A DNA stretch of 64,000 nucleotides from Gammaproteobacteria bacterium. GTDB lineage: Bacteria > Pseudomonadota > Gammaproteobacteria > Ga0077536. This document shows, piece after piece, positions 15,391 through 56,024 of the stretch. Position numbers and translations under genes: made by a program. The stretch covers positions 18,753 to 82,752 of the forward strand of contig JADLGE010000071.1 of assembly GCA_020849475.1 (NCBI GenBank), read 5' to 3'. Position 1 is the first letter of the stretch, and each line of letters begins with the position of its first letter. The notes beneath the pieces are model-generated. The model did no database searches. It saw only the letters and a list, made by a program, of their open reading frames with translations, and was not told the origin of the DNA.

Positions 15391-15474
15391 TTGAATGTCA
15401 GGCTGAAGTCTGAGCCACGGACCAGCAGAATTCATCGGGGCGCGGATTTCAGTCTGACATTTTGAATGTGCGGG
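15391..15474. repeat. REP-like palindromic element (unit A gaatgtcagGCTGAAgtctga... plus unit B ttgaatgtgcgggg)
   Basis: Inverted copies aatgtcaggctga / tcagtctgacatt; the same family recurs at seven other intergenic sites. Confidence 0.8.
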
Positions 15475-15530
15475 GCTCTCCCCTATGCTGCCCCCCTCCA
15501 ACGCCAAGAACCACTCACGAAGGAAGCCTC

Positions 15531-16187
15531 ATGGATCTCAACACTGTCGATCATCTGCTCACCACCACGCGCTCGGTGCGCAAGCGTCTCGACTTCTCGC
15601 GCCCGGTGGAACGCAGCGTCATCACCCGCTGCATCGAACTCGCACTGCAGGCGCCTACCGGCGGCAACGCCCAGGGCTGGTCTTTCATGGTCGTCACCGA
15701 CGAAGCCAAGCGCGCGGCGATTTCTGCGCTGTACAAGAAGGCCTTCAAGCTCTACAGCAGCGATCCGAACATGCGCGCGCGCTATGGGGATGACGGCGAC
15801 CTGCGCGCCCAGCAGCTCGACCGCGTGCTGAGCTCGGCCGACTATCTGTCCGACAACATGCACAAGGCGCCGGCGCTGGTGATTGCCTGCATCGAAGGGC
15901 GCGTTGAAAAAGGCAGCCCGCTGGAACAGGCCGGTGTGTACGGCTCCATCCTGCCGGCGGCGTGGTCGTTCATGCTGGCGCTGCGTTCGCGCGGCCTCGG
16001 CACCGCCTGGACCACGCTGCACATCATGTATGAACAGGAAGCCGCGAAGATTCTCGGCATCCCCGACACTATCACCCAGGCCGCGCTGTTCCCGGTGGCT
16101 TACTACACCGGCGACGACTTCAAACCGGCCAAGCGTCTGCCGACCGAGCAATTCGTGCATTGGGACAGCTGGGGTTCCAAGGGCTGA
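15531..16187 (+). CDS. Nitroreductase family protein
   Basis: Start ATG 15531 after AAGGAAG; nitroreductase fold motifs. Confidence 0.8.
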   Translation: MDLNTVDHLLTTTRSVRKRLDFSRPVERSVITRCIELALQAPTGGNAQGWSFMVVTDEAKRAAISALYKKAFKLYSSDPNMRARYGDDGDLRAQQLDRVLSSADYLSDNMHKAPALVIACIEGRVEKGSPLEQAGVYGSILPAAWSFMLALRSRGLGTAWTTLHIMYEQEAAKILGIPDTITQAALFPVAYYTGDDFKPAKRLPTEQFVHWDSWGSKG

Positions 16188-16202
16188 GCGAAACGCTGCG
16201 AC

Positions 16203-17129
16203 TCACTGGCCGAGGCGCATGCGCGCCTTGGTCAGGGTGATGAAATTTTTCATGGTCGCGCTGGCCTCGCGCGACCACACGAGGCTGGTCTCGCATTCCG
16301 GTAAAGACAAGCGGTGCTTGCCGCGCTGCGCCGCGATGTCCCGATACACCACGCCCGGCCGCTGAAAGCGGCGCACGCTGGCCGGCACCCACGCCACGCC
16401 CAGGCCGGCCGACACCAAGTTGACGATGGTCTGCATCTGCACCGCTTCCTGTGCGATGCGTGGCGTGTGCTGGGCGCTGTGATAAAGCGCGAAGATGGCG
16501 TCGTACAGTGATGGCGCGATATGGCGTGGAAAGATCACGAGCGGCGTCTGCATGACCTGCGCGGCATCGAGCTTGCCGGCCGCGAGCGAATGACGCTTGG
16601 GCACCGCCAGCAGCAAGGCTTCCCTGTCGACCGCCATCGATTCGAATTCGGCCGGCGCGCGCCCCGGCGAGTGCAACAAAAGACCGCCATCGATGGCGCC
16701 GCGCGCCAGGGCATCCAGCTGTACGTCACCGGTCGCTTCGGTAAGTTCGAGCTGCACGGCGGGATAGCGTTCACGAAATGCGCGCACCCAGGCGGGCAGG
16801 TGCGTGAAGCCGATGGTCGAGACAAACGCGAGGTGCAGATGCCCGCTTTCACCGCCGGCCGCGGCGCGCGCCATCGGCGGCAGTCGCGCGGCATGGGCGA
16901 GCAGGGCCTGCACCTGCGGCAGCAGCGCCGCGCCCGCCGCGCTCAGCTCGACGCGGCGCTTGTTGCGCTCGAACAGGCGCACGTCGAGATGGCGTTCGAG
17001 CAGGGCGATGGCCTGGGTCAGCGGTGGCTGGGTCATATGCAGGCGGCGCGCGGCGCGTCCGAAGTGCAGCTCTTCCGCGACCGCCAGAAACTGGCGCCAC
17101 AGGCGCAATTCGATGTTCGGTTCTTTCAT
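16203..17129 (-). CDS. LysR family transcriptional regulator
   Basis: N-terminal HTH (LRQFLAVAEELHFGRAARRLHMTQPPLTQAIALLE) and LysR substrate-binding domain. Confidence 0.9.
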   Translation of the reverse strand: MKEPNIELRLWRQFLAVAEELHFGRAARRLHMTQPPLTQAIALLERHLDVRLFERNKRRVELSAAGAALLPQVQALLAHAARLPPMARAAAGGESGHLHLAFVSTIGFTHLPAWVRAFRERYPAVQLELTEATGDVQLDALARGAIDGGLLLHSPGRAPAEFESMAVDREALLLAVPKRHSLAAGKLDAAQVMQTPLVIFPRHIAPSLYDAIFALYHSAQHTPRIAQEAVQMQTIVNLVSAGLGVAWVPASVRRFQRPGVVYRDIAAQRGKHRLSLPECETSLVWSREASATMKNFITLTKARMRLGQ

Positions 17130-17236
17130 ATGCGAAGCGTATCACCGGCCACTGAATAATATATTGGACCGGCATCCTGCCCAACGCCGATAGTCTGGGC
17201 CGTCGCGACGCACCCAGCGTCGAGGAGGCCGAGGCC

Positions 17237-17623
17237 ATGCACACCCCACAAGACGACGAGCAGTCCGCGCTGCTCGACACCATCCACAGCTATCTCGACG
17301 GCTTTTACGCAGGCGATGTCGCCAAGCTCGCGACGGTCTTTCATCCGACCTGCGCGCTCACCCAGAGCTGTGACGGCGAATTGCACATCATCAAACGCGG
17401 CCTGTGGCTGGAGATGGTGCAGCAGCGCCCTTCGCCCGCCGCGCTCGGGCTGCCGCGAGTGGATCAAATTCTGTCCGTCGACATGGTCGGGCCACACATG
17501 GCCCACGTGAAACTGAAATGCGCCATCGTGCCGCGCTACTTCACCGACATGCTGTCGCTGCTGAAAGTCGAGGGACGCTGGCAGGTGGTGCAGAAGGTTT
17601 ACAGCACCGCCGACGCGCCGTGA
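17237..17623 (+). CDS. NTF2-like (SnoaL/DUF4440-type) small protein, divergent from LysR
   Basis: 128 aa, fold inferred from length and composition. Confidence 0.6.
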   Translation: MHTPQDDEQSALLDTIHSYLDGFYAGDVAKLATVFHPTCALTQSCDGELHIIKRGLWLEMVQQRPSPAALGLPRVDQILSVDMVGPHMAHVKLKCAIVPRYFTDMLSLLKVEGRWQVVQKVYSTADAP

Positions 17624-17659
17624 TGCACCGCTTATTCATCAACTCACAGGAGAAGCACC

Positions 17660-17941
17660 ATGCCCCATGTCCTGATCATTCATGAAGTCGCGGCTTATCC
17701 CGCCTGGAAGGCCGTGTTCGACAACGCCGCCGAAATGCGCAAGAAGGCCGGCGAGATCAGCTATCAATTGTTACGCCGCGATACCGATGCAAACCACATC
17801 GTGCACTTCTCGCGCTGGTCATCGCTGGAGGAGGCGAGAAATTTTTTCGAATCGCCGGAGCTGGTCGAGATCCGGCGTCAGGCGGGCGTGAAGGCGCCGG
17901 AGTTCATTTATCTAGAACACATCGAAGAAGGCGTGTTGTGA
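17660..17941 (+). CDS. ABM-fold (antibiotic biosynthesis monooxygenase-like) small protein
   Basis: 93 aa MPHVLIIHEV...HFSRWSSLEEARNF; fold call from memory. Confidence 0.5.
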   Translation: MPHVLIIHEVAAYPAWKAVFDNAAEMRKKAGEISYQLLRRDTDANHIVHFSRWSSLEEARNFFESPELVEIRRQAGVKAPEFIYLEHIEEGVL

Positions 17942-17957
17942 GCCGTGCAGGTTTATT

Positions 17958-17987
17958 TTGAATGTCAGGCTGAAGCCTGACATTCAG
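17958..17987. repeat. REP-like element, perfect hairpin gaatgtcaggc-tgaa-gcctgacattc
   Basis: 11-bp stem perfect palindrome read directly. Confidence 0.85.
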
Positions 17988-18002
17988 GGCGAGACGCGGC
18001 CC

Positions 18003-19682: not shown

Positions 19683-19714
19683 GGCGGTTGCTCCGTGATG
19701 GGCTTGGGTGCGGC

Positions 19715-21229: not shown

Positions 21230-21314
21230 GGCGCAATCCATGCGGGCAAGCCGACACCCCGCAGTAGGTTAAGCGTCATCACAAACCCGATAGACTGCCG
21301 ACCCGAGAGCAGGC

Positions 21315-26425: not shown

Positions 26426-26475
26426 GTTGCCCGACAGGGTTGATTCGCCCGCGCTTGGGCGCGTGCTTTTAGGTA

Positions 26476-26552
26476 TGGCGCGCCCGACAGGATTCGAACC
26501 TGTGACCTCTGCCTTCGGAGGGCAGCACTCTATCCAGCTGAGCTACGGGCGC
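26476..26552 (-). tRNA. tRNA-Arg (anticodon CCG)
   Basis: Reverse complement gives GCGCCCGTAGCTCAGCTGGATAGAGTGCTGCCCTCCGAAGGCAGAGGTCACAGGTTCGAATCCTGTCGGGCGCGCCA; cloverleaf with 7-bp acceptor stem, T-loop GGTTCGAATCC, anticodon loop CT-CCG-AA, encoded CCA. Confidence 0.9.
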
Positions 26553-26845
26553 TTTGTGAGGCGTAAAGTATAACGGCATTCAGTGCTGTCGGTCGGCCCG
26601 ACAGGATTGATTCGCCCGCGCTCGAGCGCGTGCTCACCCCTGCGGGGCGTCGGCGCGCTGCGCCTCCGTCCAACATCGCTGCGCGATGTTGTCGAACCTG
26701 AGACCTCTGCCTTCGCCGGAAAGCACTCTATCGGGCTTGAGCGACGGGCGCTTTGTGAGGCGTGAAGTACAACGGCATTCAGTGCTGTCGGTCGGCCCGA
26801 CAGGATTGATTCGCCCACGCCTGGGCGCGTGCTCACCCCTGACCA
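26553..26845. repeat. ~190-bp tandem duplication downstream of tRNA-Arg containing a decayed tRNA copy
   Basis: Unit gggcgctttgtgaggcgtRaagtaYaacggcattcagtgctgtcggtcggcccgacaggattgattcgccc...gcgcgtgctcacccctg occurs at 26545-26640 and 26744-26842; a third partial copy lies at 26428-26470. Confidence 0.85.
26688..26751 (-). pseudogene. Degenerate tRNA-Arg fragment (pseudo-tRNA)
   Basis: gttgtcgaacctgagacctctgccttcgccggaaagcactctatcgggcttgagcgacgggcgc aligns with the functional tRNA at 26493-26552 but anticodon arm and D-arm are disrupted. Confidence 0.55.
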
Positions 26846-27871: not shown

Positions 27872-27882
27872 GCTGCAACGAA

Positions 27883-27937
27883 AGAGGCCCTGCCCATCAC
27901 GCTGCGTGCGGCGTGATGGGCAGGGCCTCTTTTTTTG
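27883..27937. terminator. Bidirectional rho-independent terminator between convergent cytochrome c and uvrD
   Basis: agaggccctgcccatcac...gtgatgggcagggcctct 18-bp stem followed by ttttttt. Confidence 0.75.
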
Positions 27938-27964
27938 TGCGACGTTTTTGCGCTTGTGCCGCGC

Positions 27965-31588: not shown

Positions 31589-31606
31589 ATTTCGGGAAGC
31601 GTTCAT

Positions 31607-31690
31607 TGTAGGTGCGATTTCAATCGCACATTCAGGGCGCGGCTGGGTGTCGGTGGGGCAGTTTTAATGTGCGAATGAATTCGCAGCTAC
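31607..31690. repeat. REP-like element (unit B: gtgcgatttcaatcgcac hairpin and aatgtgcgaatgaattcgcag hairpin)
   Basis: Read directly; overlaps sthA stop. Confidence 0.8.
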
Positions 31691-33069
31691 AACTTGTTCC
31701 ACGCATCCAGCGCCGCAATCTTGTAGGCCTCGGCGAGGGTCGGGTAGTTGAATACCGCTTCGACAAAGAAATCGAGCTTGCCGTCGTGGGCCAGCACCGC
31801 CTGGCCGATGTGGATGAGTTCGGTCGCGCCTTCGCCGACGATGTGCACGCCGAGCAGGCGGCGATCTTCGAGCGACACCAGCAGTTTCAACAAGCCCTCG
31901 CGCAGCCCCAGAATCTGCCCACGTGAAGTCTCGCGAAAGCGCGCAATGCCGGTTTCGTAGGCGACGCCGGCGCTGCGCAGTTCTTCTTCAGTCTTGCCCA
32001 CCACGCTCATTTCCGGCACCGCATAGATGCCGAAAGGGAAGATGTCGTTGGTGGCTTTCACCACGCCGTTGAAAGCATGGGCCGCGGCCTGACGACCCTG
32101 CTCCATGGAGGTCGAGGCCAGCGCCGGAAAGCCGATCACATCGCCGGCCGCATAGATGTGCGGCACGGCGGTGGCGAAATTGGCGTCGACTTCGAGGCGC
32201 CCGCGGCTGTCGGGTGTGAGACCGGCGTTTTCGAGCCGGAGTTTGTCGGTATTGCTCACGCGCCCGGACGCGAACAGCGCCATGTTGGCGCGAATGTGCT
32301 TGCCGCTGGCGAGATGCACGACGAGTTTCTTGTCATCGATGACTTCCACCGATTGCACGGTTTCACCCAGACGCAGGCTCACGCCGCGGTCGCGCAGGTG
32401 ATGGGTGAATTCGTCGACGATTTCGCGATCGAGAAAACCGAGGATGTCGGTGCGGCCGTCGACCAACGTCACGCCGATGTCGAGCGCGCTCAGCATGGCC
32501 GCGTACTCGACCCCGATCACGCCCGCGCCGACCACCACCACGGTGCGCGGCAGTTCCTGCATGTCGAGGATGTTGTCGCTGTCGACCACATTGGGGCAGT
32601 CGAAGGGAATGCCGGGCGGTTGCACGGGGCGCGAGCCGGTCGCGATCAGGATTTTGTCCGCTTCGATGAGTTTGACTTCATCACTGCCGGTCTCGATACG
32701 CAGCACATGGGGCGATTCGAACACCGCGTTGCCGGCGATGGTGTCGACGAAATTCCTGTGCAGCTTGTGCATCAGGATCTCGATTTCGTGACGGATGGTG
32801 ATGTCGAGGCGCTGCATCAAGTCCTCGGCGGTGATGCGCTCCTTGACCCGGTAGCTGCGCCCATAGAAGCCGCGCTGGCGCCAGCCGGACAGATACAGCA
32901 CCGCCTCGCGCAGGGTCTTGCTGGGGATGGTGCCGGTATGCACGCAGGCGCCGCCAATGGAAAAGGAACGCTCGATGAGCGCCACCGTGCGTCCGAGCTT
33001 GGCAGCCTGGATGGCGGCGCGTTGTCCGGCCGGCCCGCTGCCGATGACAACGAAATCGTACTTGGTCAT
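31687..33069 (-). CDS. sthA: Soluble pyridine nucleotide transhydrogenase
   Basis: 460 aa; FAD-binding GSGPAG, CxxxxC redox-like GGACVHTGTIPSK, NAD-binding GAGVIGVE. Confidence 0.92.
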   Translation of the reverse strand: MTKYDFVVIGSGPAGQRAAIQAAKLGRTVALIERSFSIGGACVHTGTIPSKTLREAVLYLSGWRQRGFYGRSYRVKERITAEDLMQRLDITIRHEIEILMHKLHRNFVDTIAGNAVFESPHVLRIETGSDEVKLIEADKILIATGSRPVQPPGIPFDCPNVVDSDNILDMQELPRTVVVVGAGVIGVEYAAMLSALDIGVTLVDGRTDILGFLDREIVDEFTHHLRDRGVSLRLGETVQSVEVIDDKKLVVHLASGKHIRANMALFASGRVSNTDKLRLENAGLTPDSRGRLEVDANFATAVPHIYAAGDVIGFPALASTSMEQGRQAAAHAFNGVVKATNDIFPFGIYAVPEMSVVGKTEEELRSAGVAYETGIARFRETSRGQILGLREGLLKLLVSLEDRRLLGVHIVGEGATELIHIGQAVLAHDGKLDFFVEAVFNYPTLAEAYKIAALDAWNKL

Positions 33070-35219: not shown

Positions 35220-37189
35220 ATCCCACGCCCTTGAGCGCGCGCGAAGTGCTGTGGGTGGCGGTGGTGCTGCTGCTCGCGCTGTTGCCGCACATGCCGCGCT
35301 TTCCGCTGATTCTCGACGCGGGCTTCGTGCTGGCCTGCGGCTGGCGCTACCTCGGCGCGCAGGGCGTGCTGCCCTTGCCGGACCGCGAGCACCGCCTGCT
35401 GTGGTTGTTGAAGCAATTGCTGGCCATCACGGCCTTCGTCACCATCTACATCGCGTTTCGCGGCAAGCTCGGTCGCGATGCCGGTGTCGAACTGCTGGCC
35501 GCGCTGCTGGGTTTGAAACTGCTGGAGATGCGCAGCCCGCGCGATTACTACGTGGTGACCTTGCTGTGCTATTTCCTGGTGGTCACCAATTTCTTTTATG
35601 CGCAGACCATTCCAACCGCGCTCTACATGCTCGGCGTGGTGATTGCCGCGACCGCGGTGCTCATTCAATACAACACGCCGCCCGCCTATCGCCAGCCGCG
35701 CGCCATGCTGCGCCTGTCGGCGCTGATGACCGCGCAGTCGATACCGCTGATGCTGCTCGCCTTCGTGCTGTTTCCGCGCATCCCGGGGCCGCTGTGGGGC
35801 ATGCCGCAGGACGCCTTCGATGCGGTGACGGGCCTCTCCGACAGCATGACGGTCGGCGACATCACGCGCCTCGGCATGTCGAACGAAATCGCATTTCGCG
35901 TGCAGTTCCACGGCCCGGAGCCGCGTGCCCGCGCGCGCTACTGGCGCGGCCCGGTGCTGTGGCACAGCGACGGCCGCGCCTGGCAGGTCGGCGCCTTTGC
36001 CGACCATCCGGCGCCGCTCGAGCATCATGGCCAGCGCTATCTCTACACCGTCACCATGGAGCCTCACCGCAAGCACTGGCTGCTGGGCCTCGATGTCGTC
36101 ACCGCCAAACCGCGCGACGTCATGCAGACCGCCGACTATGCCTTGAAGACCCGCCAGCCGCTGCGCACGCGCATGCGCTACGACCTCGAGTCGGCCATCG
36201 AATATCGCATGACGGGATTAAGCGACGCGGAGCGGCGCGCCGCCCTCGAAATTCCTCGTGGCCACCATCCCCGCGCACGTGAGCTCGGGGCGCAGTGGCG
36301 CGCCGAGACCCGTCAAGAGGATGCCATCATCGCGCGTGCGCTGGATTTCTATCGCGCCGGCAAGTTCGTCTATTCACTGACGCCGCCGACCCTGCCCGGC
36401 GACACCGTCGATGACTTCCTGTTCACGACACACGAAGGCTTCTGTGAACACTTCGCGTCGAGCTTCGTCATGCTCATGCGCGCGGCCGGCATTCCGGCGC
36501 GCGTCGTCACCGGCTACCAGGGCGGTGAATACAACGAAGTGGGTGAATACATGGTGGTGCGTCAGCGCGACGCCCACGCCTGGGCCGAGGTCTATCTCGA
36601 CGGGCGCGGCTGGGCACGTGTCGACCCGACCGCCACCGTCGCGCCCAACCGCGTATCGCTCGGCTTTGCCGATGCCAATCCGCGCGGCGCACCGGGCACG
36701 GGCTTTGCGCGTGATGCCTTGAGCGGCCGCGTGTGGACGCGCCTGCGCGATTCCTTCGACGCCATCACCTATGGCTGGAATCAATGGGTGCTGGGCTATA
36801 CCACGGCGCAACAGCGCAACCTGTTCGAAGAACTCGGCTTCGAAGACCTCGACTACGGCTCGTTGGTGATAGCGCTCACGCTGGCGCTCGCGTTGACCAC
36901 CGGCGCGCTGGCCTGGCTCATGTGGCGCGCGACACGTCGGCCGCGCGATCCGCTCAGCGCCGCCTATGGGACCTTCTGCGCCAGGCTCGCACGCATCGGC
37001 TTCACGCGCGGTGCGAGCGAAGCGCCGCTGGCGTTTGCGGAAAGGGTCTGCCGGCTGCGCGGAGATCTGGCCGACGAAGTGCGCGCCATCACGCGGCTGT
37101 ATGGTCTCTTGCGCTACGGACGCGGCGGTGTGGATGTGAAAGTGCTGCGGCGAAAAGTGGCTAATTTCAGGCCGAAGCGACAGGTGTGA
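35180..37189 (+). CDS. Transglutaminase-like / DUF3488 membrane protein (TgpA-like)
   Basis: Multi-TM N-terminal half, transglutaminase core with Cys/His (GFCEHFASSF...AHAWAEVYLDGRGWARVDPT); in-frame GTG 35216 overlapping DUF58 stop is an alternative start. Confidence 0.8.
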   Translation: MSARARAVRGAAVNPTPLSAREVLWVAVVLLLALLPHMPRFPLILDAGFVLACGWRYLGAQGVLPLPDREHRLLWLLKQLLAITAFVTIYIAFRGKLGRDAGVELLAALLGLKLLEMRSPRDYYVVTLLCYFLVVTNFFYAQTIPTALYMLGVVIAATAVLIQYNTPPAYRQPRAMLRLSALMTAQSIPLMLLAFVLFPRIPGPLWGMPQDAFDAVTGLSDSMTVGDITRLGMSNEIAFRVQFHGPEPRARARYWRGPVLWHSDGRAWQVGAFADHPAPLEHHGQRYLYTVTMEPHRKHWLLGLDVVTAKPRDVMQTADYALKTRQPLRTRMRYDLESAIEYRMTGLSDAERRAALEIPRGHHPRARELGAQWRAETRQEDAIIARALDFYRAGKFVYSLTPPTLPGDTVDDFLFTTHEGFCEHFASSFVMLMRAAGIPARVVTGYQGGEYNEVGEYMVVRQRDAHAWAEVYLDGRGWARVDPTATVAPNRVSLGFADANPRGAPGTGFARDALSGRVWTRLRDSFDAITYGWNQWVLGYTTAQQRNLFEELGFEDLDYGSLVIALTLALALTTGALAWLMWRATRRPRDPLSAAYGTFCARLARIGFTRGASEAPLAFAERVCRLRGDLADEVRAITRLYGLLRYGRGGVDVKVLRRKVANFRPKRQV

Positions 37190-37210
37190 TAGCGCGTGAC
37201 TGTGCTGCCG

Positions 37211-37317
37211 AATTGAATGTCAGACTCAAGTCTGACCCACAAAATCAGCGACCTTCTTCCTGTCGGTCAGACTTGAGTCTGACATTGAGTCGCTTGCATG
37301 TGCGAATGAATTCACAC
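37211..37317. repeat. REP-like element, inverted pair of unit A hairpins plus unit B (gcatgtgcgaatgaattcacacct)
   Basis: aatgtcagac-tcaa-gtctgac ... gtcagac-ttga-gtctgacatt read directly. Confidence 0.85.
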
Positions 37318-39069
37318 CTATGCGGACTCGGACAATTCCTCGAAGCCCGCTGAATACAGCCTCGCATAAGCGCCGCCCGCGGCCAGCAGATCGCGGTGCG
37401 TGCCGCTTTCGATGATACGGCCGCCGTCCAGCACCACGATGCGGTCGGCCTGTTCGATGGTCGACAGACGATGGGCGACGATGAGGCTGGTGCGACCTTT
37501 GCGCACGGTGTTGAGCGCTTCCTGCACTAGGCGCTCGGCTTCGTTGTCGAGCGCGGCGGTCGCTTCGTCGAGGATGAGTATCGGCGCGTCTTTCAACAGC
37601 GCGCGCGCAATCGCCACGCGCTGTCGCTGGCCGCCCGACAGGCGCACGCCGTTTTCACCGATCAGGGTGTCGAGGCCCTGTGGCAGACCGTCGGTGAAGG
37701 CGCTGACCTGCGCTTCGCGGGCCACGCGTTCGACTTCCTCGCGCGGCACGGCGCGCAGCGCGCCGTAGGCGATGTTGTTGTAGAGGGTGTCGTTGAACAG
37801 CACGATGTGCTGACCGACGTAGGCGATGTTGCGTCGCAGTCCGGCGAGGGTGTAATCCTCCACCGGCTGGCCATCAATCAGGAGGCGGCCGCTGGTGAGC
37901 GGGTAGAAGCGCGGCACGAGATTGACCATCGAGGTCTTGCCACCGCCCGAACGCCCGACCAGTGCCACGGTTTCGCCGGCGCCTATGACGAGATTGATGT
38001 CGTCGAGCGCGGTGCGCTCGCCGTAGCGCAGGCTCACATGGTCGAAATGGATGGCGCCTTTGAGGCGTACGTCGTGCCGGCCTTGGTCGACTTCAGGCGT
38101 GACATCCACCAGCGCGAAAATCGAGTCGGCGGCCGCCAGGCCGCGCTGCAGGAATTCGTTGACGCCGGCCAGGCGCTTGGTCGGCGGCAGCACCAGCGCG
38201 GTGGCGGTGACGAAGGCGATGAAATCGCCGCGCGTCATGCTGCCGTCAGCCGCCGCGCGCACCGCCAGCACCACCATGAGCGCGATGCCGAAAGACACGC
38301 ACAGCTGGATCAGCGGCACGATGGTGGCGCTCGACCCCACCACTTTCATGTGGAATTTGCGCGCGTCGTTGATGGCGCGATCGAAGCGCTGGGTCTCGTA
38401 ATCGTAGCCGTCGAAGACCTTGACCTCGCGGTGCCCGCGCACCGACTCCTCGGTGACCTGGTTAATGGCGCCGACCGACTCCTGTAGACGCCGGCTCATC
38501 TGGCGCATGCGCTGCGAGGCGCGGCGCACGATGATGGCAATCGGTGCGGCGAACAGCACCAGCAGCGCGGTCAATTGCCAGTTGAGGTAGAAGAGGTAAC
38601 CGAACAGCACCGTGATGATGGCGGTGTCCTTGATCAGGACTTCGATGACGCGCGTCGCGGCCTGCGCGACCTGGGTCACGTCAAACGTGAATTTCGAAAT
38701 CAGCTCGCCGCTCGAGCGGCTGTCGAAAAAGCTCGCCGGCAGGCGCACCAGGGTCTTGAACATGGCCATGCGCAGGTCCGCGATGGTGCGCTGGGACACC
38801 CATTGCAGGGCGAACATGTCGATGTAATTGAGCAGGCCGCGGGCCGCGAACAAGGCCACCAGGAGGCCGCCCGTGACATAGGCGTTGCGCCCGTTGGCAA
38901 TATCGAAATCTTTGTCGATCAGCGGTTTGAGCAGCGCCGGCAGCATCCATTCGGTGGCGGCCAGGGCCACCATGGCGGCGATGGCCCACGCGAACTGGCG
39001 CCAGTAGGGGCGAACGAAGCCTAACAGTCGATGGTAAATCTCGCGGTCCGCGATGGTCCTCTGGCGCAT
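37318..39069 (-). CDS. msbA: Lipid A export ATP-binding/permease protein MsbA
   Basis: Six-TM ABC exporter domain plus NBD with Walker A GRSGGGKTS, signature LSGGQRQR, Walker B ILILDEAT. Confidence 0.88.
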   Translation of the reverse strand: MRQRTIADREIYHRLLGFVRPYWRQFAWAIAAMVALAATEWMLPALLKPLIDKDFDIANGRNAYVTGGLLVALFAARGLLNYIDMFALQWVSQRTIADLRMAMFKTLVRLPASFFDSRSSGELISKFTFDVTQVAQAATRVIEVLIKDTAIITVLFGYLFYLNWQLTALLVLFAAPIAIIVRRASQRMRQMSRRLQESVGAINQVTEESVRGHREVKVFDGYDYETQRFDRAINDARKFHMKVVGSSATIVPLIQLCVSFGIALMVVLAVRAAADGSMTRGDFIAFVTATALVLPPTKRLAGVNEFLQRGLAAADSIFALVDVTPEVDQGRHDVRLKGAIHFDHVSLRYGERTALDDINLVIGAGETVALVGRSGGGKTSMVNLVPRFYPLTSGRLLIDGQPVEDYTLAGLRRNIAYVGQHIVLFNDTLYNNIAYGALRAVPREEVERVAREAQVSAFTDGLPQGLDTLIGENGVRLSGGQRQRVAIARALLKDAPILILDEATAALDNEAERLVQEALNTVRKGRTSLIVAHRLSTIEQADRIVVLDGGRIIESGTHRDLLAAGGAYARLYSAGFEELSESA

Positions 39070-40846: not shown

Positions 40847-40874
40847 TTGAATGTGCGATTGAAATCGCACCTGC
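40847..40874. repeat. REP-like element unit B (ttgaatgtgcgattgaaatcgcacctgc)
   Basis: gtgcgat-tgaa-atcgcac hairpin. Confidence 0.8.
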
Positions 40875-40952
40875 GGGGGCGTCGAGGGACGGGGCATTTT
40901 ATTTTGTACTTATTAGTACATAATAAAGCCACTCCACCACCGAGGCGCTCCC

Positions 40953-41688: not shown

Positions 41689-42303
41689 ATGTCTCCGCCG
41701 CGCGGTAGGCCACGCAAGTTCGAGCACGGGCCGGTACTGCTGCGTGCGCTGGAGGTTTTCTGGCGCCAAGGTTATGCCGCCACCACCATCGACACGCTCG
41801 CCGCCGCCATGGGCCTCAACAAGCCCAGCCTCTACAACGCCTACGGCGACAAGCAACGCATCTACCGTGCGGCCCTCGCCGCCTTCGTCGCGCAGGTCAA
41901 GGAAGAGGTCGGCGCCGCGCTCGCCAGCAGCACGGATATCCGTCAAGCCTTGCAGGCATTCTTCGACGGCGCGTTGATGGTGTATTGCGCGCACGAGCCA
42001 GCGCTCGGTTGCTTTGCGATCTGCACCGCCACCGCCGAGGCGGTGGCTCACGCCGACATCCAGCAGGACCTGGCCGGCGTCATCGCCGGGCTCGATGCGA
42101 TGCTGGCAGCGCGTTTCAGCGAAGCGCGGGACGCGGGTCAGGTGAGTGCGACGCCTTCACCGGCAGACCGCGCGCGTCTTACCCAGGCGGTGTTGCACAG
42201 CCTGGCGGTGCGTTCGCGCGCCGGTGAGTCGCGCGAGAGTTTGAGTGCGATGGCCGCGCAGGGCATCGCGATGGTGTGCGGAGTCGATTCAATGCGCGAC
42301 TAA
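41689..42303 (+). CDS. TetR family transcriptional regulator
   Basis: N-terminal TetR HTH (GYAATTIDTLAAAMGLNKPSLYNAYGDK). Confidence 0.85.
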   Translation: MSPPRGRPRKFEHGPVLLRALEVFWRQGYAATTIDTLAAAMGLNKPSLYNAYGDKQRIYRAALAAFVAQVKEEVGAALASSTDIRQALQAFFDGALMVYCAHEPALGCFAICTATAEAVAHADIQQDLAGVIAGLDAMLAARFSEARDAGQVSATPSPADRARLTQAVLHSLAVRSRAGESRESLSAMAAQGIAMVCGVDSMRD

Positions 42304-42365
42304 ATTCGCATCTACCGGCGCACGCCGACCTCCGCTGCAGGTGCGACAAATTCGCACATTGAACC
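42303..42365. repeat. REP-like element unit B variant (gtgcga-caaat-tcgcacattgaac)
   Basis: Read directly between convergent TetR and AhpD-like genes. Confidence 0.7.
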
Positions 42366-43828: not shown

Positions 43829-43897
43829 TTGTGGGTCAGACTTCAGTCTGACATTCAATTGCGCGGCTCAAGTGTCAGGCTGAAGACTGACCCACAA
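43829..43897. repeat. REP-like element, inverted pair of unit A hairpins (tgtgggtcagac-ttca-gtctgacatt ... gtgtcaggc-tgaa-gactgacccacaa)
   Basis: Read directly. Confidence 0.85.
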
Positions 43898-46967: not shown

Positions 46968-46974
46968 TCTGGAA

Positions 46975-49130: not shown

Positions 49131-50030
49131 ATGAGCGAGGCGCTTTTCGAGCCGCCAGGCCGCACCGACGACCGGCTGCTGCTGACCATCGTGATCGCGG
49201 CCGCGGTGCATGTGATGGTGGTGCTGGGCGTGCGTCTGCCGCCCGAAGCGCCGGTCAAGTCGCGCTTCTCGGCGATGGAAGTCGAGCTGGTGCCGGCCGC
49301 GCCGCCGAGCGCGACCAGCGCCGCACTCACAGCGGCCAGCGATGGCGCCGAGGAACCGCCGCTGCTGCCCATGGCGCCGGTCGAGAAGCCGGCGGTCAAG
49401 GCCGCGCCCATGCCGACCATTGCAGAGGAGAAACCCACGCCTGCGCCGATGGCCACGGTCGCGTCCAAGCCCACACCCACGCCGAAGAGCCGTAGCACCT
49501 CGCCACCGCCCGCGGCCGTCGCGCCCACGGCCGTCGAGCGCGCGCCGCACGCCGAGCCGGCCAGCGACACCGCACCGGCCCTGCCGCTGCCGACGGCCTC
49601 GCAATTGATTGCACGCTCACTCGCCATCGCCGCCACCGGCGCCGGCCTCATTGAAGACAGGACCATCAGCGGTCAGTCCGTCAGCGAGCGCACGCTCTAT
49701 ATCAAGAACAACACCCGCGACCTGACCGAGATGGCCTATGCCGAAGGGGTGCGCAACCGCGCCAAGCGTTTCGGCGAGCTGTTCGAACGCGATGTGCCCA
49801 GCGGCCGCGTCGGCCTCGACGTGGCGGTGGCCAGCGACGGCAGCCTGGCCAAGGTCGTCATCACCAAGTCATCGGGTATCGAGGCGACCGACGCCAAGGC
49901 CATTCGCATCATCGAAAAGGCCGCGCCTTTCGGCGCGCTGCCGCCCGAGATGGCCAGGAAATACGATGTCGCGCACATCGAATTCACCATGAGCATCGTC
50001 GACGACCAGGGCTTCAACGGTGGTCAGTAA
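49131..50030 (+). CDS. TonB family energy transducer
   Basis: N-terminal TM, Pro/Ala-rich spacer, C-terminal TonB domain. Confidence 0.8.
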   Translation: MSEALFEPPGRTDDRLLLTIVIAAAVHVMVVLGVRLPPEAPVKSRFSAMEVELVPAAPPSATSAALTAASDGAEEPPLLPMAPVEKPAVKAAPMPTIAEEKPTPAPMATVASKPTPTPKSRSTSPPPAAVAPTAVERAPHAEPASDTAPALPLPTASQLIARSLAIAATGAGLIEDRTISGQSVSERTLYIKNNTRDLTEMAYAEGVRNRAKRFGELFERDVPSGRVGLDVAVASDGSLAKVVITKSSGIEATDAKAIRIIEKAAPFGALPPEMARKYDVAHIEFTMSIVDDQGFNGGQ

Positions 50031-51024
50031 CGTGCGCGCGCTGCGCCAGGCCACGCGCCCCGGCGACATCAACAGCGACGATCGCCTGGCGCTGACCATC
50101 GTGGTGGCCATCGTGCTGCATGCGATGGTGCTGCTGGGCGTGAGCTTCGCCCCCGAGCCCAATGCGCCGTCGCGCTTCGAATCGATGGAAGTGATCCTGG
50201 TCGCGGAAAAATCCGCCAAGGCGCCCAAGCACGCCAAGCTGCTGTCGCAGGCCAACCTCGAAGGCGGCGGCGACAGCGACGACGATGTGCGGCCGAGCGC
50301 GCCGGTCAAGGCGCCCCTGCCGGCGCCAACCGCGGCGGTGGCGAGTCCGCCGCCACCGCCGGCCCATGCACAGCCGGCGCCACCGGTGGAGCAACCCGCG
50401 CCAGCGCCGGCCCGCGAAGGCCAGCGGCAGGTCAAGGATCACGTGGCGCGGGTCGCCGAACACGGCGAGCTACCGTTGCCGAACAAGAGCGCGACGCGCC
50501 CGACGCAGGTCAGGCCCGAGGCGCCGCCCGAGCCTCAGCCTGAAGCGCAGCCGGTGGTCGACAACGAGCCCTTGCCCGACGGCGCCCAGCAGCTGGTGCA
50601 TTCCTTCGCCATCGCCAACCTGTCGGCCGAGATCCAGGAAAAGCTCGAAAGCCGCGCCAAGCGGCCGCGACGCAAATACGTGTCGGCCACCACCCAGGAA
50701 TACCGCTATGCCGCCTACATGGAAGCGTGGCGCGCCAAGGTCGAGCGCATCGGCAACATCAATTATCCGGAGGAAGCGCGCCGTCGACGCCTGTCCGGCA
50801 CGGTGATGCTGGACGTGGCGGTCAACCGCGATGGCAGCGTCGGCGAGATCAGTGTGCGCAAATCGTCCGGCATCACACTGCTGGACGATGCCGCCGTGCG
50901 CAGCGTGCACCTCGCCGCGCCCTATGATCCGCTGCCGCCGGAGATCCGTAAGGAAGTCGACGAGCTGCACGTGACCCGCACCTGGAAGTTCTTCGACACG
51001 AGTGCGGTGCAGGTCTCGCGCTGA
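50020..51024 (+). CDS. TonB family energy transducer (tandem paralog)
   Basis: GTG overlapping upstream stop; same architecture with (PEPQ) Pro-rich spacer and TonB C-terminal domain. Confidence 0.8.
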   Translation: MVSNVRALRQATRPGDINSDDRLALTIVVAIVLHAMVLLGVSFAPEPNAPSRFESMEVILVAEKSAKAPKHAKLLSQANLEGGGDSDDDVRPSAPVKAPLPAPTAAVASPPPPPAHAQPAPPVEQPAPAPAREGQRQVKDHVARVAEHGELPLPNKSATRPTQVRPEAPPEPQPEAQPVVDNEPLPDGAQQLVHSFAIANLSAEIQEKLESRAKRPRRKYVSATTQEYRYAAYMEAWRAKVERIGNINYPEEARRRRLSGTVMLDVAVNRDGSVGEISVRKSSGITLLDDAAVRSVHLAAPYDPLPPEIRKEVDELHVTRTWKFFDTSAVQVSR

Positions 51025-51086
51025 GGCCGGCTGTCGGCTTGTAAGCGTCGCGCGCGGCGTGAATAATTTCGAGACCAGCGTTAACC

Positions 51087-51647: not shown

Positions 51648-52039
51648 GCACCGTCACCGCGCTTGGTTTCGACTATGGCGAGCGCCGCATCGGCGTGGCG
51701 GTAGGCCAGAGCCAGACGCGCAGCGCGCAGGCGCTCGTGACTCTCACGGTGCGCAATGGCCAGGTAGACTGGCCGGCCATCGCCAGGCTCATCGACGAGT
51801 GGCGGCCGCAGCAACTGGTGGTCGGCCTGCCCGGCAATGACGACGGTTCGCCGCACGCCAACGCCGAGGCCATCGCGCGCTTCGGGCGCCGCCTCCACGG
51901 CCGCTTCCACCTGCCGGTCGCGTTTGTCGATGAACGCCTGTCGTCGTATGCTGCCAGCGAGGATCCGGATACCCGGCGCGTTGGTCTCGACGCGGTGGCG
52001 GCACGGCTGATACTCGAAACTTGGCTGGCCGGGTGCTGA
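51644..52039 (+). CDS. ruvX: Putative pre-16S rRNA nuclease / Holliday junction resolvase-like RuvX (YqgF)
   Basis: TTG 51644 overlapping yqgE stop gives LSTVTALGFDYGERRIGVAVG, the canonical YqgF N-terminus; 131 aa. Confidence 0.85.
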   Translation: MSTVTALGFDYGERRIGVAVGQSQTRSAQALVTLTVRNGQVDWPAIARLIDEWRPQQLVVGLPGNDDGSPHANAEAIARFGRRLHGRFHLPVAFVDERLSSYAASEDPDTRRVGLDAVAARLILETWLAGC

Positions 52040-52135
52040 CGAGCATCCTCGACACCAGCGCCGCCGCCAGGCGTCGCGCGCCAGCACATTCCACTTTTAG
52101 TCCCTGGACGCGGCGCCGGCCGCCACGCTGAACCC

Positions 52136-52651
52136 ATGCACGAACTCGAACAACTCGACGTCGATACCCTGATCGCGGACATCGCCGCGCGTCTGAAAAA
52201 ACGTATCGCGGAGCAGAATCTCTCCAATCCGGCGCTGGTCGGCATACGCACCGGCGGTGTGTGGCTGGCGCAGCGCCTGCAGAAGAAATTGAAACTGGCG
52301 GGCCCTATCGGCGAATTGAACATCGCCTTCTATCGCGATGACTTCAGCCGCATCGGCATGCATCCGACCGTCGAGCCGTCGGCGCTGCCTTTCGATGTCA
52401 ACGACCGGCACCTGCTGCTGGTCGACGACATCCTCTACACCGGCCGCACCATACGCGCGGCCATGAACGAGATTTTTGACTACGGCCGGCCGCGTTCAAT
52501 CAGCCTGGTGGTGCTGATCGACCGCGGCGGGCGTGAACTGCCCATCGATGCCAGCGTCTATGGCGCGCGCGTCACCCTCGCCCCGGGTCAGCATGTTAAA
52601 CTTCTCGGACCCGATCCCCTGCGACTCGAAATTGGCGCGACCAAGTCATGA
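52136..52651 (+). CDS. pyrR: Bifunctional pyrimidine operon regulator / uracil phosphoribosyltransferase
   Basis: 171 aa; PRPP-binding LLLVDDILYTGRT motif. Confidence 0.92.
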   Translation: MHELEQLDVDTLIADIAARLKKRIAEQNLSNPALVGIRTGGVWLAQRLQKKLKLAGPIGELNIAFYRDDFSRIGMHPTVEPSALPFDVNDRHLLLVDDILYTGRTIRAAMNEIFDYGRPRSISLVVLIDRGGRELPIDASVYGARVTLAPGQHVKLLGPDPLRLEIGATKS

Positions 52652-52706
52652 CCAGCGAAGGCGGCCGCTTGTCCGGCGCATATAAGTTCGAAAAGGCCGG
52701 CAGCTG

Positions 52707-53675
52707 ATGGCGCAGGACAGCATCCAACTCGACAGCCAGGGGCGCCTGAAGCACTTCCTGACCACCGAGCATCTGCCTCGCAGCCTGCTCACCGCCATCC
52801 TCGACAATGCCGAACGCTTCACCGTGGTCGGCGACAGGGCGGTCAAGAAAGTGCCTTTGCTGCGCGGCAAGACCGTCGTCAACCTGTTCTTCGAGCCGAG
52901 CACGCGCACCCGCACGACTTTCGAACTGGCGGCCAAGCGCCTGTCGGCCGACGTCATGAATCTCAACATCGAGGCCAGCGCCGCCAAGAAGGGCGAGTCG
53001 CTGGCCGACACCCTGCGCACCCTCGAAGCGATGCAGACCGACATGTTCGTGGTGCGTCATCATGAATCGGGCGCGCCGGAATTCATCGCGCGCCAGGTCG
53101 GACCCGAGGTCAGCGTCATCAATGCCGGCGACGGTCGCCATGCGCACCCGACCCAGGCCATGCTCGACATGTTCACCATCCGCCGCTACAAGCGCGATTT
53201 CACCCAGTTGAAAGTGGCCATCGTCGGCGATGTCGCCCATTCGCGCGTGGCACGCTCCGAAATCCATGCATTGAAGACCCTCGGCGTGCCGGAGATTCGC
53301 GTGGTCGGGCCCAAGACCCTGCTGCCGCGCGGCATCGAGGCGCTGGGCGTCGACGTGCATCATTCCCTCGAGACCGGTCTCGCAGGCGTCGACGTGGTGA
53401 TGATGCTGCGCCTGCAACAGGAGCGCATGCAGAGTGCCTTGCTGCCTAGCGGCCATGAATACTTCCACACCTTTGGCCTGACGCCGGCGCGTTTGAAGCG
53501 CGCCAAGCCCGACGCCATCGTCATGCACCCCGGCCCCATCAACCGCGGCGTCGAAATCGATTCGGCGGTGGCGGACGGCAAGCAGTCGGTGATCCTGCAG
53601 CAAGTCACCCACGGCATCGCGGTGCGCATGGCGGTGATGTCGATGGCGATGGGCACCGCCGCCCAGGCCTCATGA
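52707..53675 (+). CDS. pyrB: Aspartate carbamoyltransferase catalytic subunit
   Basis: STRTR carbamoyl-phosphate motif, HPTQ, HPGP motifs. Confidence 0.93.
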
Positions 53676-53685
53676 AATTCCAAGC

Positions 53686-54966
53686 ATGAAGATTACGATC
53701 AGTGGCGGTCGGGTCATCGACCCGGTCAACCAGCGCGACGAAGTCGTCGATGTGTTCATCGACGGCGACACCATCATCGGCCTCGGCCGCACGCCCGCCG
53801 GCTTCAAGCCGGCACGCGTCATCGACGCGACGGGCGCCATCGTGTGCCCGGGCTTCACCGAAGTCGGCGCGCGCCTGCGCGAACCTGGCGCCGAGCACAA
53901 AGCCACCATCGTCAGCGAACTCGAAGCAGCAGCAGCATCCGGCTTCACCACCGTGTGCTGCATGCCCGACACCAATCCGGTCATCGACACGCCGGCGGTG
54001 GTGGAACTCGTCAACCAGCGCGCGCGCGGCGTGCGCGGCGCGCGGGTCCGTTGCATCGGCGCCTTGACCCAGGATCTCGGCGGCTCGGTGCTGGCCGAAA
54101 TGGCGGCGCTGAAGGACATCGGCTGCGTGGGCGTGGCCAACGCCGGCCATGCGCTGCGCGACAGCAATGTCTTGAAGAACGCCCTCGCCTATGCGGCGAC
54201 GCTCGACATGACGGTGTTCCTCGATGCCGAAGACCCGTGGTTGGCGGCGCAGGGCTGTATGCACGAGGGCGCGGTCAGCACCCGTCTCGGCCTGCCCGGC
54301 ATTCCGGCCGCGGCCGAACTCATCGGCCTCGGGCGCGACCTGGTGCTGCTCGAAGACAGCGGCGCACGCGCCCACTTCCGCACTCTGACCTGTGGCCGCT
54401 CCATCAAGTACGTCAACAACGCACGCAAGACCGGCCTCGAGGTCAGCGCCAGCGTCGGCATCTCACACCTCGTGTTGACCGACGAAGACATCACGCGCTT
54501 CGACGGCCTGTTTCATGTGCGCCCGCCGCTGCGCACGCGGCGCGATCGCGCGCGCCTCATCCGCGGGCTCGCCGAGGGCCAGGTCGAAGTGCTGTCGGCC
54601 CATCATGAACCCCATGACGCCGACGCCAAGGCCGGCCCCTTCGGCGCCACCGCGCCCGGCATCTCGACCTTCGACAGCTTTCTGCCGTCCATGCTGCAGC
54701 TGGTCGAAGCCGGCCATCTCGATCTCATGCGCGCCATCGATGCCGCGGCCGTGCAGCCGGCACGGGTGATTGGCAACGCGTCGGCCAGCCTCGGCGTCGA
54801 CGCGCTGGCCGACATCTGCATCTTTTCGCCGGGCGAGCTCTGGACCTTGAGCGCCGACACCATGATGAGCAGCGGCAAGAACACGCCTCTGCTCGGGCGC
54901 AGCATGAAAGGCCGCGTGCTGGCGACCCTGGTCGGCGGTCGCATCGTCTTCGAACGGAAGGCCTGA
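53686..54966 (+). CDS. pyrC': Dihydroorotase-like protein, probably non-catalytic (PyrC')
   Basis: DHOase fold, but the N-terminal metal-binding HxH position reads PGFTEVGARLREPG (no His pair). Confidence 0.85.
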   Translation: MKITISGGRVIDPVNQRDEVVDVFIDGDTIIGLGRTPAGFKPARVIDATGAIVCPGFTEVGARLREPGAEHKATIVSELEAAAASGFTTVCCMPDTNPVIDTPAVVELVNQRARGVRGARVRCIGALTQDLGGSVLAEMAALKDIGCVGVANAGHALRDSNVLKNALAYAATLDMTVFLDAEDPWLAAQGCMHEGAVSTRLGLPGIPAAAELIGLGRDLVLLEDSGARAHFRTLTCGRSIKYVNNARKTGLEVSASVGISHLVLTDEDITRFDGLFHVRPPLRTRRDRARLIRGLAEGQVEVLSAHHEPHDADAKAGPFGATAPGISTFDSFLPSMLQLVEAGHLDLMRAIDAAAVQPARVIGNASASLGVDALADICIFSPGELWTLSADTMMSSGKNTPLLGRSMKGRVLATLVGGRIVFERKA

Positions 54967-54967
54967 G

Positions 54968-55858
54968 ATGGGTGACGCGGCCAATATCGCCCGTCCGCAC
55001 CGCGGCACGATAGGGCTCACCGACGCGAAGATAATCGCCGTCGAACACTTCGAAGGGGCGCAGCATTATCTGCGTCTCGACTGTCCTGGCATCGCCGCGC
55101 GCGCCCTGCCCGGCAGCTTCGTGCATCTTAAATGCGACAACGAACTGCCGATGCGGCGGCCAATGTCGGTGATGCGGGTATCGGCCCAGGACGGCTGGCT
55201 GGACGTTCTCTACAAGGCCCACGGCCACGGCAGCGGTCTGCTCGCGACACGCGTGGTCGGTGAGACTTTGAGCGTGATGGGCCCCATCGGCCAGCCGTTC
55301 AAATTGCGCGACTACCGGCCGCGCCCCCTGCTGATTGGGGGCGGCGTCGGCATGCCGCCGATGCTGTTCCTGGCCGAACATCTGCGCGCCACCGCGAAGC
55401 AGGTGCAGCCCTTGGTGCTGCTCGGCTCCGAAGTGCCGTTCCCATTCAGCGCACGCCCCTCGACCATCATGGTGCCCGGCGTGCCGCCTCAGGTGATCGC
55501 GGCCATGCCGCTGCTGGAGGACTGGCATATTGCCTCACGGCTCGCGAGCCTCGCTGGTTTTGCCGGCTGCTTTGAGGGTTATGTGACGGATCTCGCGCGT
55601 GAGTGGCTGACTACCAGCGGCGTGGCGCGTGATGACGTCGAGATCTTCGCCTGCGGTCCGACGCCCATGCTGCGCGCCGTGCAGCGACTCGCGGCAGAGC
55701 TCGCGCTGCCCTGTCAGATCTCGCTCGAGGAATACATGGCCTGCGCGGTCGGCGGCTGCGCCGGCTGCACAGTCAAGGTCGAGACCGCCAACGGGCCGGC
55801 CATGAAGCGCGTGTGCGTGGACGGACCGGTGTTCGAAGCGTCGACAGTCGTAATTTGA
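54968..55858 (+). CDS. PyrK-like FAD/NAD(P)-binding oxidoreductase with C-terminal 2Fe-2S cluster
   Basis: FNR-like module (RRPMSV, GGGVGMPP) plus C-terminal CxxxxCxxC...C (CAVGGCAGC...C). Confidence 0.72.
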   Translation: MGDAANIARPHRGTIGLTDAKIIAVEHFEGAQHYLRLDCPGIAARALPGSFVHLKCDNELPMRRPMSVMRVSAQDGWLDVLYKAHGHGSGLLATRVVGETLSVMGPIGQPFKLRDYRPRPLLIGGGVGMPPMLFLAEHLRATAKQVQPLVLLGSEVPFPFSARPSTIMVPGVPPQVIAAMPLLEDWHIASRLASLAGFAGCFEGYVTDLAREWLTTSGVARDDVEIFACGPTPMLRAVQRLAAELALPCQISLEEYMACAVGGCAGCTVKVETANGPAMKRVCVDGPVFEASTVVI

Positions 55859-55891
55859 AGGGCTGCTGGCCTGAAACATCCACGCGCGCCT

Positions 55892-56024
55892 TTGAATGCC
55901 AGGCTGAAGCCTGCCCCACAAAGCGCCCTCGTCGACTGTTGAAACCCATTGTGGGTCAGACTTCAGTCTGACATTCGCATTGATTGGCGCGCCTGCGAAT
56001 GTGCGAATGAATTCGCACCTACAA
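55892..56024. repeat. REP-like composite element (unit A x2 plus unit B aatgtgcgaatgaattcgcacct)
   Basis: ttgaatgccaggctgaagcctgcccca ... tgtgggtcagacttcagtctgacattc ... gtgcgaatgaattcgcac. Confidence 0.85.

Follow-up and report, generated by a model that had tools for sequence, protein, structure and literature searches.

The 64,000-nucleotide stretch of DNA analysed here, which we call the window, is part of contig JADLGE010000071.1 (positions 18,753 to 82,752; GenBank assembly GCA_020849475.1) of an uncultured gammaproteobacterium. It carries 16 hairpin units of 28 nt, spread over eight intergenic sites, each of which lies no more than 45 nt from a stop codon. On the strand that bears the unpaired head, the units follow a single frame: TTGT(A/G)G, a 7-bp stem, a TTCA loop, the complementary stem and ATTC; on the opposite strand this reads GAATGT-N5-TGAA-N5'-AC-C(C/T)ACAA. 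Two families are built on this frame. In family A the stem is GTCAGAC (or GTCAGGC) and the head GTGG; in family B they are GTGCGAA (or GTGCGAT) and GTAG. The GTGG head is present in five of nine A units and the GTAG head in four of seven B units, the remaining heads being degenerate, and three units (those starting at 43829, 55949 and 55997) match the consensus exactly. Folded as DNA, the consensus A and B units form hairpins of -5.5 to -7.1 kcal/mol. We are confident in assigning these units to the GT(A/G)G-headed superfamily of repetitive extragenic palindromes (REPs), and within it to the small perfect-palindrome type.

The initial annotation of this DNA had described REP-like palindromic units at eight intergenic sites, and direct reading of all eight bears this out. 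The REP identity holds as well, given the GT(A/G)G-headed structure, the extragenic location, the inverted dimers and the compensatory variation of the stems. What does not survive is the division into two separate units, A and B, since the two share one frame and differ solely in compensatory stem changes and in the head. Among the coordinates given, that of site 6 needs correction: it starts at 42290 rather than 42303, its first unit running over the TAA stop and the final codons of a TetR gene. Placement at gene 3' ends or between convergent genes, claimed for seven of the eight sites, is likewise right in kind, the true count being eight of eight (five convergent gaps and three tandem ones).

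Compared with dinucleotide-preserving shuffles of the window, both unit patterns are in excess: pattern A has 15 matches against 0.04 expected and pattern B 11 against 0.84, and no shuffle matched either observed count. A covariance model built from units that included 13 of those in the window, and searched with filters off, returned 15 window units at 26-47 bits, 13 of which were the units used in its construction. It also recovered a unit from outside its build set, at 42335-42361 on the minus strand, with 19.4 bits. Over the whole 64 kb this model found no further scoring unit except a weak B-like match at 11897-11925 (CAATGTGCGACTGGATTTCGCAGCC; 16.6 bits, E ~0.01), which lies inside an HpiC1-like gene and represents either the remnant of a REP within that gene or a chance resemblance. 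A generic repeat search ranked the REP units as the top and largest repeat families of the window (D1, D5 and D6). At the gathering thresholds of Rfam 15, only a tRNA-Arg matched in the window, and no unit fell into any curated RNA family.

The eight sites and their gene context

Site 1 occupies a tandem gap upstream of a nitroreductase gene (ATG at 15531). Its A unit at 15393-15420 (plus strand; GAATGTCAGGCTGAAGTCTGAGCCACGG; 35.7 bits) lies 45 nt past the stop of a GST gene (15347), and is followed at 15435-15462 (minus strand) by a degenerate A half-unit that keeps only the GAATGT-proximal half. This second element was detected only as the pairing partner of the first, with which it forms a ~20-bp hairpin (-37 kcal/mol, z -5.8). 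Site 2, between a convergent ABM gene (stop 17941) and an amidohydrolase gene (stop 18003), is a single headless A unit at 17958-17987 (plus strand) with a palindrome extended to 14 bp, GAATGTCAGGCT-GAAG-CCTGACATTC. Site 3 is a dimer of B units. Its left arm at 31606-31633 (minus strand; 45.1 bits) lies 17 nt past the stop of pmbA, and its right arm at 31665-31692 (plus strand) has a GTAG head whose TAG, at 31687-31689, serves as stop codon for the transhydrogenase gene on the minus strand.

Site 4 is a trimer. An A unit at 37215-37242 (plus strand), 25 nt past the stop of tgpA, forms a heads-inside pair with an A unit at 37260-37287 (minus strand), and a B unit at 37296-37323 (plus strand) follows; its degenerate head, ATAG, contains the TAG stop (37318-37320) of an ABC transporter gene on the minus strand. 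Site 5 is a single B unit at 40849-40876 (plus strand), in a tandem gap 12 nt past the stop of a ParA-like gene. At site 6, a degenerate B unit at 42290-42317 (plus strand; 25.9 bits), which has the TetR gene's TAA stop (42301-42303) in its loop, forms a heads-inside pair with the B unit at 42335-42361 (minus strand), which has a one-base deletion and ends 6 nt from the stop of the CMD gene (42368). Site 7 lies in a minus-strand tandem gap and pairs an exact-consensus A unit at 43829-43856 (minus strand; 46.7 bits), the left arm of a heads-outside dimer, with an A unit at 43870-43897 (plus strand) that ends 9 nt from the stop of hemY (43907). Site 8 opens with an A unit at 55894-55921 (plus strand; 42.2 bits), 35 nt past the stop of the DHODB-FeS gene, with the compensated stem GCCAGGC/GCCTGCC. 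Next come an exact-consensus A unit at 55949-55976 (minus strand) and an exact-consensus B unit at 55997-56024 (plus strand; 46.2 bits), which together make a hybrid A/B heads-outside dimer; the TAG in the head of the latter (56019-56021) is the stop codon of a glutaredoxin-like gene on the minus strand.

In all, three stop codons are supplied by heads (31687, 37318 and 56019), and with the TetR TAA in a loop this makes four genes that terminate translation inside a unit. For annotation, the units should be marked as repeat elements, with the stop codons of these four neighbouring genes lying inside them.

Most sites hold more than one unit, and the arrangements differ. The units of sites 4 and 8 form A+ A- B+ trimers, heads-inside pairs are present at sites 1, 4, 6 and 8, and heads-outside doublets occur at site 3 (59 nt start-to-start, the canonical form) and site 7 (a shorter one, 41 nt start-to-start). 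All of the window's doublets fold as long hairpins (z -4.7 to -8.6). Among related loci collected from other genomes (see below), the commonest arrangement is the inverted pair with heads outside, and 59 of 92 such pairs measure 57-61 nt start-to-start, giving a doublet of ~87 nt with a ~31-nt spacer that is fixed in length and variable in sequence. Hybrid dimers of two stem families occur in these relatives too.

A gene map made from the gene calls on same-species contigs together with Pfam places units in five of ten convergent gaps, three of 53 same-direction gaps and none of nine divergent gaps, an enrichment of convergent gaps at Fisher p = 8e-4. All 16 units are intergenic, overlapping genes at stop codons only, in a window of which 9.5% is non-coding. 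This is the extragenic placement near 3' ends, between convergent or same-direction genes, that is seen in REPs.

Such a distribution raises the question of whether the units are simply terminators, or bidirectional terminators of convergent genes, repeated through selection for termination and not through mobility. Their stable hairpins are compatible with that role, as are their distance of at most 45 nt from a stop codon at every site and their enrichment in convergent gaps, and in E. coli the REP325 element, a 3'-UTR (untranslated region) stabiliser, is also a partly Rho-dependent terminator (Harris et al. 2026 preprint). However, no unit at any site is followed by a T-run, the unit tails being CCACAA or CATTC, and so the units are not canonical intrinsic terminators. 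A terminator scan of 30-45 kb picked up no unit, and the number of its matches was not above that in shuffles. The window does contain a perfect 30-nt inverted repeat followed by TTTTTTT, at 27876-27944 between the convergent genes hyp294 and uvrD, which is a canonical intrinsic terminator, probably a bidirectional one; that gap is without a REP. Selection for termination would also leave unexplained the invariant unpaired head and loop, and equally the identical 28-mers in distant genomes and the flanking of transposase genes that are described below. We therefore regard termination as a very improbable source of the repetition.

Reading the units as REPs leaves room for an effect on RNA. Surviving almost exclusively just past stop codons, they would be transcribed into 3' UTRs, where, by analogy with the REPs of E. 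coli, their hairpins would most likely stop 3'-to-5' exonucleases and attenuate, in part, transcription that reads through into the downstream or convergent gene. On that analogy, transcript stabilisation or attenuation by the hairpins is plausible.

Covariation, dispersal and turnover

We scanned GTDB, with one genome per species, for the frame with its flanks and loop fixed and ten stem positions left free, which gave at least 98 loci. In nearly all of the matches listed the free stem positions are complementary, and at least 15 stem variants occur. The few matches that are not complementary are singletons in unrelated low-G+C genomes, as chance predicts. Across the 33 distinct matches listed, 88% of cells pair, compared with 70% in shuffles, and all five free stem pairs covary with double changes; the covariation score was reached by none of 500 shuffles, and when the partner columns were slid as a control, pairing was at most 38%. 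Head type follows stem family among the matches listed.

These data bear on whether the 7-4-7 palindrome could be an operator at which a dimeric transcription factor regulates the adjacent genes. The perfect dyad symmetry and the strongly conserved flanks would suit such a site. Yet the stem sequence is free provided that pairing is kept, as is characteristic of a folded single strand rather than of duplex DNA recognised by a protein. Furthermore, the divergent gaps, which are the ones that contain promoters, are empty of units (0/9), all units being at gene 3' ends, and the neighbouring genes are functionally unrelated. An operator function is, in our view, exceedingly unlikely. We also considered a miniature inverted-repeat transposable element, the remnant of a transposon marked by target-site duplications and terminal inverted repeats, and rejected it.

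The REP frame is dispersed in related genomes. Exact-frame copies number at least 30 in the metagenome-assembled genome (MAG) JAYWAC01, at least 19 in CAMCBY01, at least 15 in JAIEQK01 and at least 10 in JANLSI01, and in these MAGs they lie on many separate contigs. Members were also found in Zoogloea oryzae and in MAGs labelled Steroidobacter, Povalibacter, Gallionella and Sideroxydans. The covariance model detects 275-287 units in 587 kb of the relatives' loci, and outside the matches that brought these loci in there remain ~0.9 further sites per 10 kb; the window has eight sites in 64 kb. Identical 28-mers are common to distant genomes among the scan matches, and GTAGGTCGGCCTTCAGGCCGAC, with a GAATGT tail, is present in the MAGs CAZWQK and JAYOBI. 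Many uncultured beta- and gammaproteobacteria share one REP frame, in which head, loop and stem ends are fixed and the remaining stem positions can vary. It should be noted that CAMCBY01 is labelled 'Klebsiella pneumoniae'; the 18 loci fetched from it (L001, L003, L010 and others) average 62% G+C and carry the REP family, and the bin is probably mislabelled.

Three other assemblies allow the sites themselves to be compared: GCA_035909955.1 (JAMHYK01), 99.8% identical to the window; GCA_964267835.1 (CAXWJM01), 96-98% identical; and a single syntenic contig of JAIEQK01, 77% identical. Multiplicity within the species is indicated by Logan short-read contigs, seven of which start or end at 43830/31 or 55974/75, inside both exact-consensus A units (three start at the 43829 unit and four end at the 55949 unit), while short-read contigs run unbroken through the non-consensus units. 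Breaks of this kind are how a de Bruijn assembly behaves at a multi-copy exact repeat, and so imply many identical copies. It is these repeats that fragment short-read assemblies of the organism. Together with the copies in relatives, the contig breaks argue indirectly against a low copy count confined to this region.

In CAXWJM01, sites 1, 2, 3, 5, 6 and 8 are conserved. At site 4 its B unit is kept and the A pair is absent, with unrelated sequence in its place. Between these genomes, 96-97% identical, comparison of 37136-37290 of the window with positions 5751-5911 of the corresponding locus (L103) shows ~150 nt of unrelated sequence where the window has the tgpA 3' end and the A pair. The replacement may hold a broken B unit on the minus strand (TTGTAGG...ATTCGCACATCC), the details being uncertain given the many small indels of this locus.

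Site 3 has an orthologue in JAIEQK01, in the same gap between pmbA and the transhydrogenase gene. There too it is a heads-outside dimer, with the same heads, the same loops and a spacer of the same 31-nt length, and the TTG-TAG end of the gene lies inside the right-hand head in both genomes. The spacer sequences are only weakly similar, and all four stem arms differ, each matching the dominant family of its own genome (GTCGGAC in JAIEQK01). From this comparison of sequences we tentatively raise the possibility that REP dimers, besides being gained and lost, are at times overwritten in place, although we think it doubtful. If the site 3 dimer is ancestral, the stems of both arms would have been replaced, either through transposase-catalysed exchange or through gene conversion with dispersed copies as donors; the ordinary alternative is independent insertion into the same preferred gap. 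If true, overwriting in place would be a direct and testable case of concerted REP evolution at a fixed locus.

Two other repeated features were noted in the window. After a tRNA-Arg(CCG) gene (26476-26552, minus strand) there are tandem repeats of ~199 nt at 26429-26841, which carry a partial tRNA 3' half (26692-26737, 85%) and three copies of a 39-nt motif, and which look like scars that an integrative element left at its attachment site. At 24.5-26.9 kb colinearity with the 96-97% identical relative is lost, and the JAMHYK contigs break at these repeats. At 49131-51024, an 84-nt stretch of 76% identity is common to two neighbouring TonB-family genes, suggesting a tandem gene duplication.

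The transposase

REPs of this kind are associated with a tyrosine transposase (REP-associated tyrosine transposase, or RAYT; TnpA-REP), an HUH/Y1 enzyme. By analogy with known systems, the RAYT would bind the hairpin in its folded single-stranded form, along with the head and the loop, and would cleave and rejoin the DNA, so that the population of elements stays similar in sequence while the stems co-vary. RAYT-driven mobility in this genome is what we infer from that analogy. The initial annotation had suggested that the palindromes could be substrates of a RAYT encoded elsewhere. At the level of the family this is supported, in that RAYTs of the NF047646 clade are flanked by the REP frame in metagenomes; within the ~80 kb of this genome that are accessible, no RAYT was found.

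Several searches for the enzyme came back empty. Using phmmer with E. coli TnpA-REP (identical to PDB 4ER8) and IS200 TnpA against the open reading frames (ORFs) of the window and the 98 loci, we obtained only an IS200 in one locus of JAYWAC01 (L066, 116-613); this is an ordinary IS200/IS605 TnpA with a palindrome of its own at its boundaries, CCCCGGCAAAGCCGGGGG; that palindrome has no relation to the REPs, which lie 1.2 kb away. A regular expression for RAYT motifs gave no match, and in a homologue search with E. coli RayT the matches listed were from Enterobacteriaceae alone. ORFs between closely spaced REPs in two loci (L068 and L029) were inspected and are not transposases.

A profile of 108 RayT representatives, searched against the window and the 98 loci, produced a single match, an ORF in a locus of a betaproteobacterial MAG (L019) that is truncated by the end of that locus, stopping at the HUH motif. 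The N-terminus of this RAYT begins ~160 nt downstream of the REP unit TTGTAGGTCAGGCTTCAGCCTGACAT. A word-index search with the 66-aa fragment found no match, whereas searching JGI metagenome contigs with it yielded 80 loci. The RAYTs encoded there are 149-151 aa long, carry the HUH motif and a YIVANPLRAGLV tyrosine motif, and score 147-155 bits with the NCBIfam model NF047646 ('REP-associated tyrosine transposase'), whose cut-off is 80. For the 63 full-length RAYT genes with enough flank we asked whether a REP core lies within 200 nt: it does so on both sides in 17 loci and on one side in a further eight. The flanking repeats include B-type units, GTGCGAATGAATTCGCACCTACAA (L141, L154), A-type stems (L137, L143, L153), stems of the JAIEQK type (L166) and GTAGGTCGGCCTTCAGGCCGAC (L134, L136, L138).

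Two more RAYT-plus-REP loci, from other organisms, came from a profile search with the clade (L213 and L214; look-ups P0355 and P0361). In the second of these (5421-5954; GC 0.43), at least 18 alternating REP units with a 64-nt period lie just upstream of the RAYT. The A-type stem GTCAGACTGAAGTCTGAC flanks RAYTs in L143 and L153 (GC 0.40). REP cores are conserved across very different genome compositions. The clade, whose RAYTs are ~150 aa long and without the ~20-residue C-terminal tail of E. coli TnpA-REP, comprises more than 7,900 proteins at E <= 1e-20. Contigs of ~1 kb carry most of these proteins, which would be expected were assemblies broken by the flanking repeats. The REP frame travels with this large clade of RAYTs. 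In L138 and L139 the gene beside the RAYT is 70-75% identical to a homologue situated right at the end of a JAIEQK01 contig (L005, 805-1963), and that the contig stops where a RAYT would be expected fits with repeats around the RAYT breaking the assembly.

Some of our observations weigh against the units being members of a mobile REP family in this genome. In DNA of the same species, no RAYT gene is present in the window, ~10 kb upstream of it or 5.7 kb downstream, and the copies could be relics. The units themselves are missing from the first 15 kb and the last 8 kb of the window, and from the ~10 kb upstream and 5.7 kb downstream. The canonical heads-outside spacing is seen in one window pair only, at site 3, most of the others being heads-inside or degenerate. 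Moreover, the GAAT/ATTC tail of the window's lineage is mostly missing from the REPs beside metagenomic RAYTs, and the RNA-level role is argued entirely from work on E. coli (Harris et al. 2026 preprint).

The strongest competing account is accordingly that these are fossil REPs, whose cognate RAYT has been lost and which, now immobile, are kept at gene ends as harmless or useful sequences. This would accommodate the lack of a RAYT in ~80 kb of the species and the degeneracy of many units (15435, 37296, 42290, 42335 and the headless 17958), and a RAYT-plus-REP unit is known to be deletable (Di Nocera 2013, PMC3733652). It is harder to reconcile with the three exact-consensus units (43829, 55949 and 55997), with the short-read breaks at both exact-consensus A units, implying as they do many identical copies, and with the difference at site 4 between genomes that are 96-97% identical. 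As for the absent gene, 80 kb is less than 2% of a typical genome, and failing to meet a single-copy RAYT there is to be expected. On balance we consider fossil REPs unlikely, and favour REPs of a family that is served by a RAYT.

Comparison with known systems

REPs have been defined by a GT(A/G)G head directly before a perfect palindrome that is interrupted by 2-4 bases (Nunvar 2010, PMC2817692). The class is further characterised by ~100 or more copies per genome, spread over the chromosome, and by a cognate RAYT gene that has inverted copies of its REP on its flanks (Nunvar 2010; Di Nocera 2013). The units of the window, at 28 nt with a perfect 7-bp stem and a 4-nt loop, fall within the size range of 20-40 bp and the 2-4 base interruption, carry the unpaired GT(A/G)G directly 5' of the palindrome, and form sub-families with compensatory stem changes. 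Their nearest published counterpart is the REP of Thioalkalivibrio sp. HL-EbGR7, GTAGGTCGGCCTTCAGGCCGAC, whose cognate RAYT is 'T_sp' (Nunvar 2010 Table 1, PMC2817692) and whose repeats make up family GTAG-5 (Di Nocera 2013, PMC3733652). The layout is the same, namely a head, a 7-bp stem beginning GT, a TTCA loop and a stem ending in AC, as is the GTAG head. In contrast, the stems of the window are GTCAGAC and GTGCGAA, the head of family A is GTGG, the window's lineage adds a conserved ATTC/GAAT opposite the head, and the host is another, uncultured gammaproteobacterium.

Other properties of the window's units are also familiar. Degenerate heads (GTRG or GTGG), complementary changes in stems 6-9 bp long, and heads-outside, heads-inside and hybrid dimers have all been described, as has placement between convergent or same-direction genes beside 3' ends, with heads that supply TAG stops (Di Nocera 2013, PMC3733652). 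For small perfect-palindrome REPs, recognition has been shown to depend on the bases of the loop (Corneloup 2021), which fits the invariant TTCA loop seen here. The group 3 REPs of that study (S. maltophilia and Marinomonas MWYL1) and the SMAG repeats resemble the window's units in being short perfect palindromes after GT(A/G)G, with several families per genome, hybrid inter-family dimers and head-supplied TAG stops; they differ from them in stem and loop sequences. Judging by REP type and protein length, the RAYT clade described above would belong to group 3. A literature search for the exact A and B stem sequences found no paper with them in the library covered.

The REPINs that Bertels and Rainey reportedly described in P. 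fluorescens SBW25 in 2011 are said to consist of two inverted REPs that form one long hairpin around a spacer of fixed length and variable sequence. The commonest form in the relatives (57-61 nt start-to-start) has this architecture, and so does site 3. A fixed-spacer inverted doublet is accordingly predominant in the relatives, whereas in the window site 3 alone has that spacing, most pairs being heads-inside or irregular.

E. coli REPs are ~35 nt long, are imperfect palindromes with a bulge, and occur with defined linker motifs and with sites for IHF and gyrase. They share with the window's units the extragenic position, the location in 3' UTRs and, at the level of the family, the association with a RAYT, and the two alternating unit types of their bacterial interspersed mosaic elements (BIMEs) recall sites 4 and 8. 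The window's units differ in being 28 nt long with a perfect stem, and the linkers at sites 4 and 8 vary in length and sequence, which sets this A/B alternation apart from a BIME. The elements belong to a well-described class, and the interpretation in the initial annotation was essentially right. One well-known class of repeat accounts for all eight palindrome sites of the window, and current understanding is unchanged.

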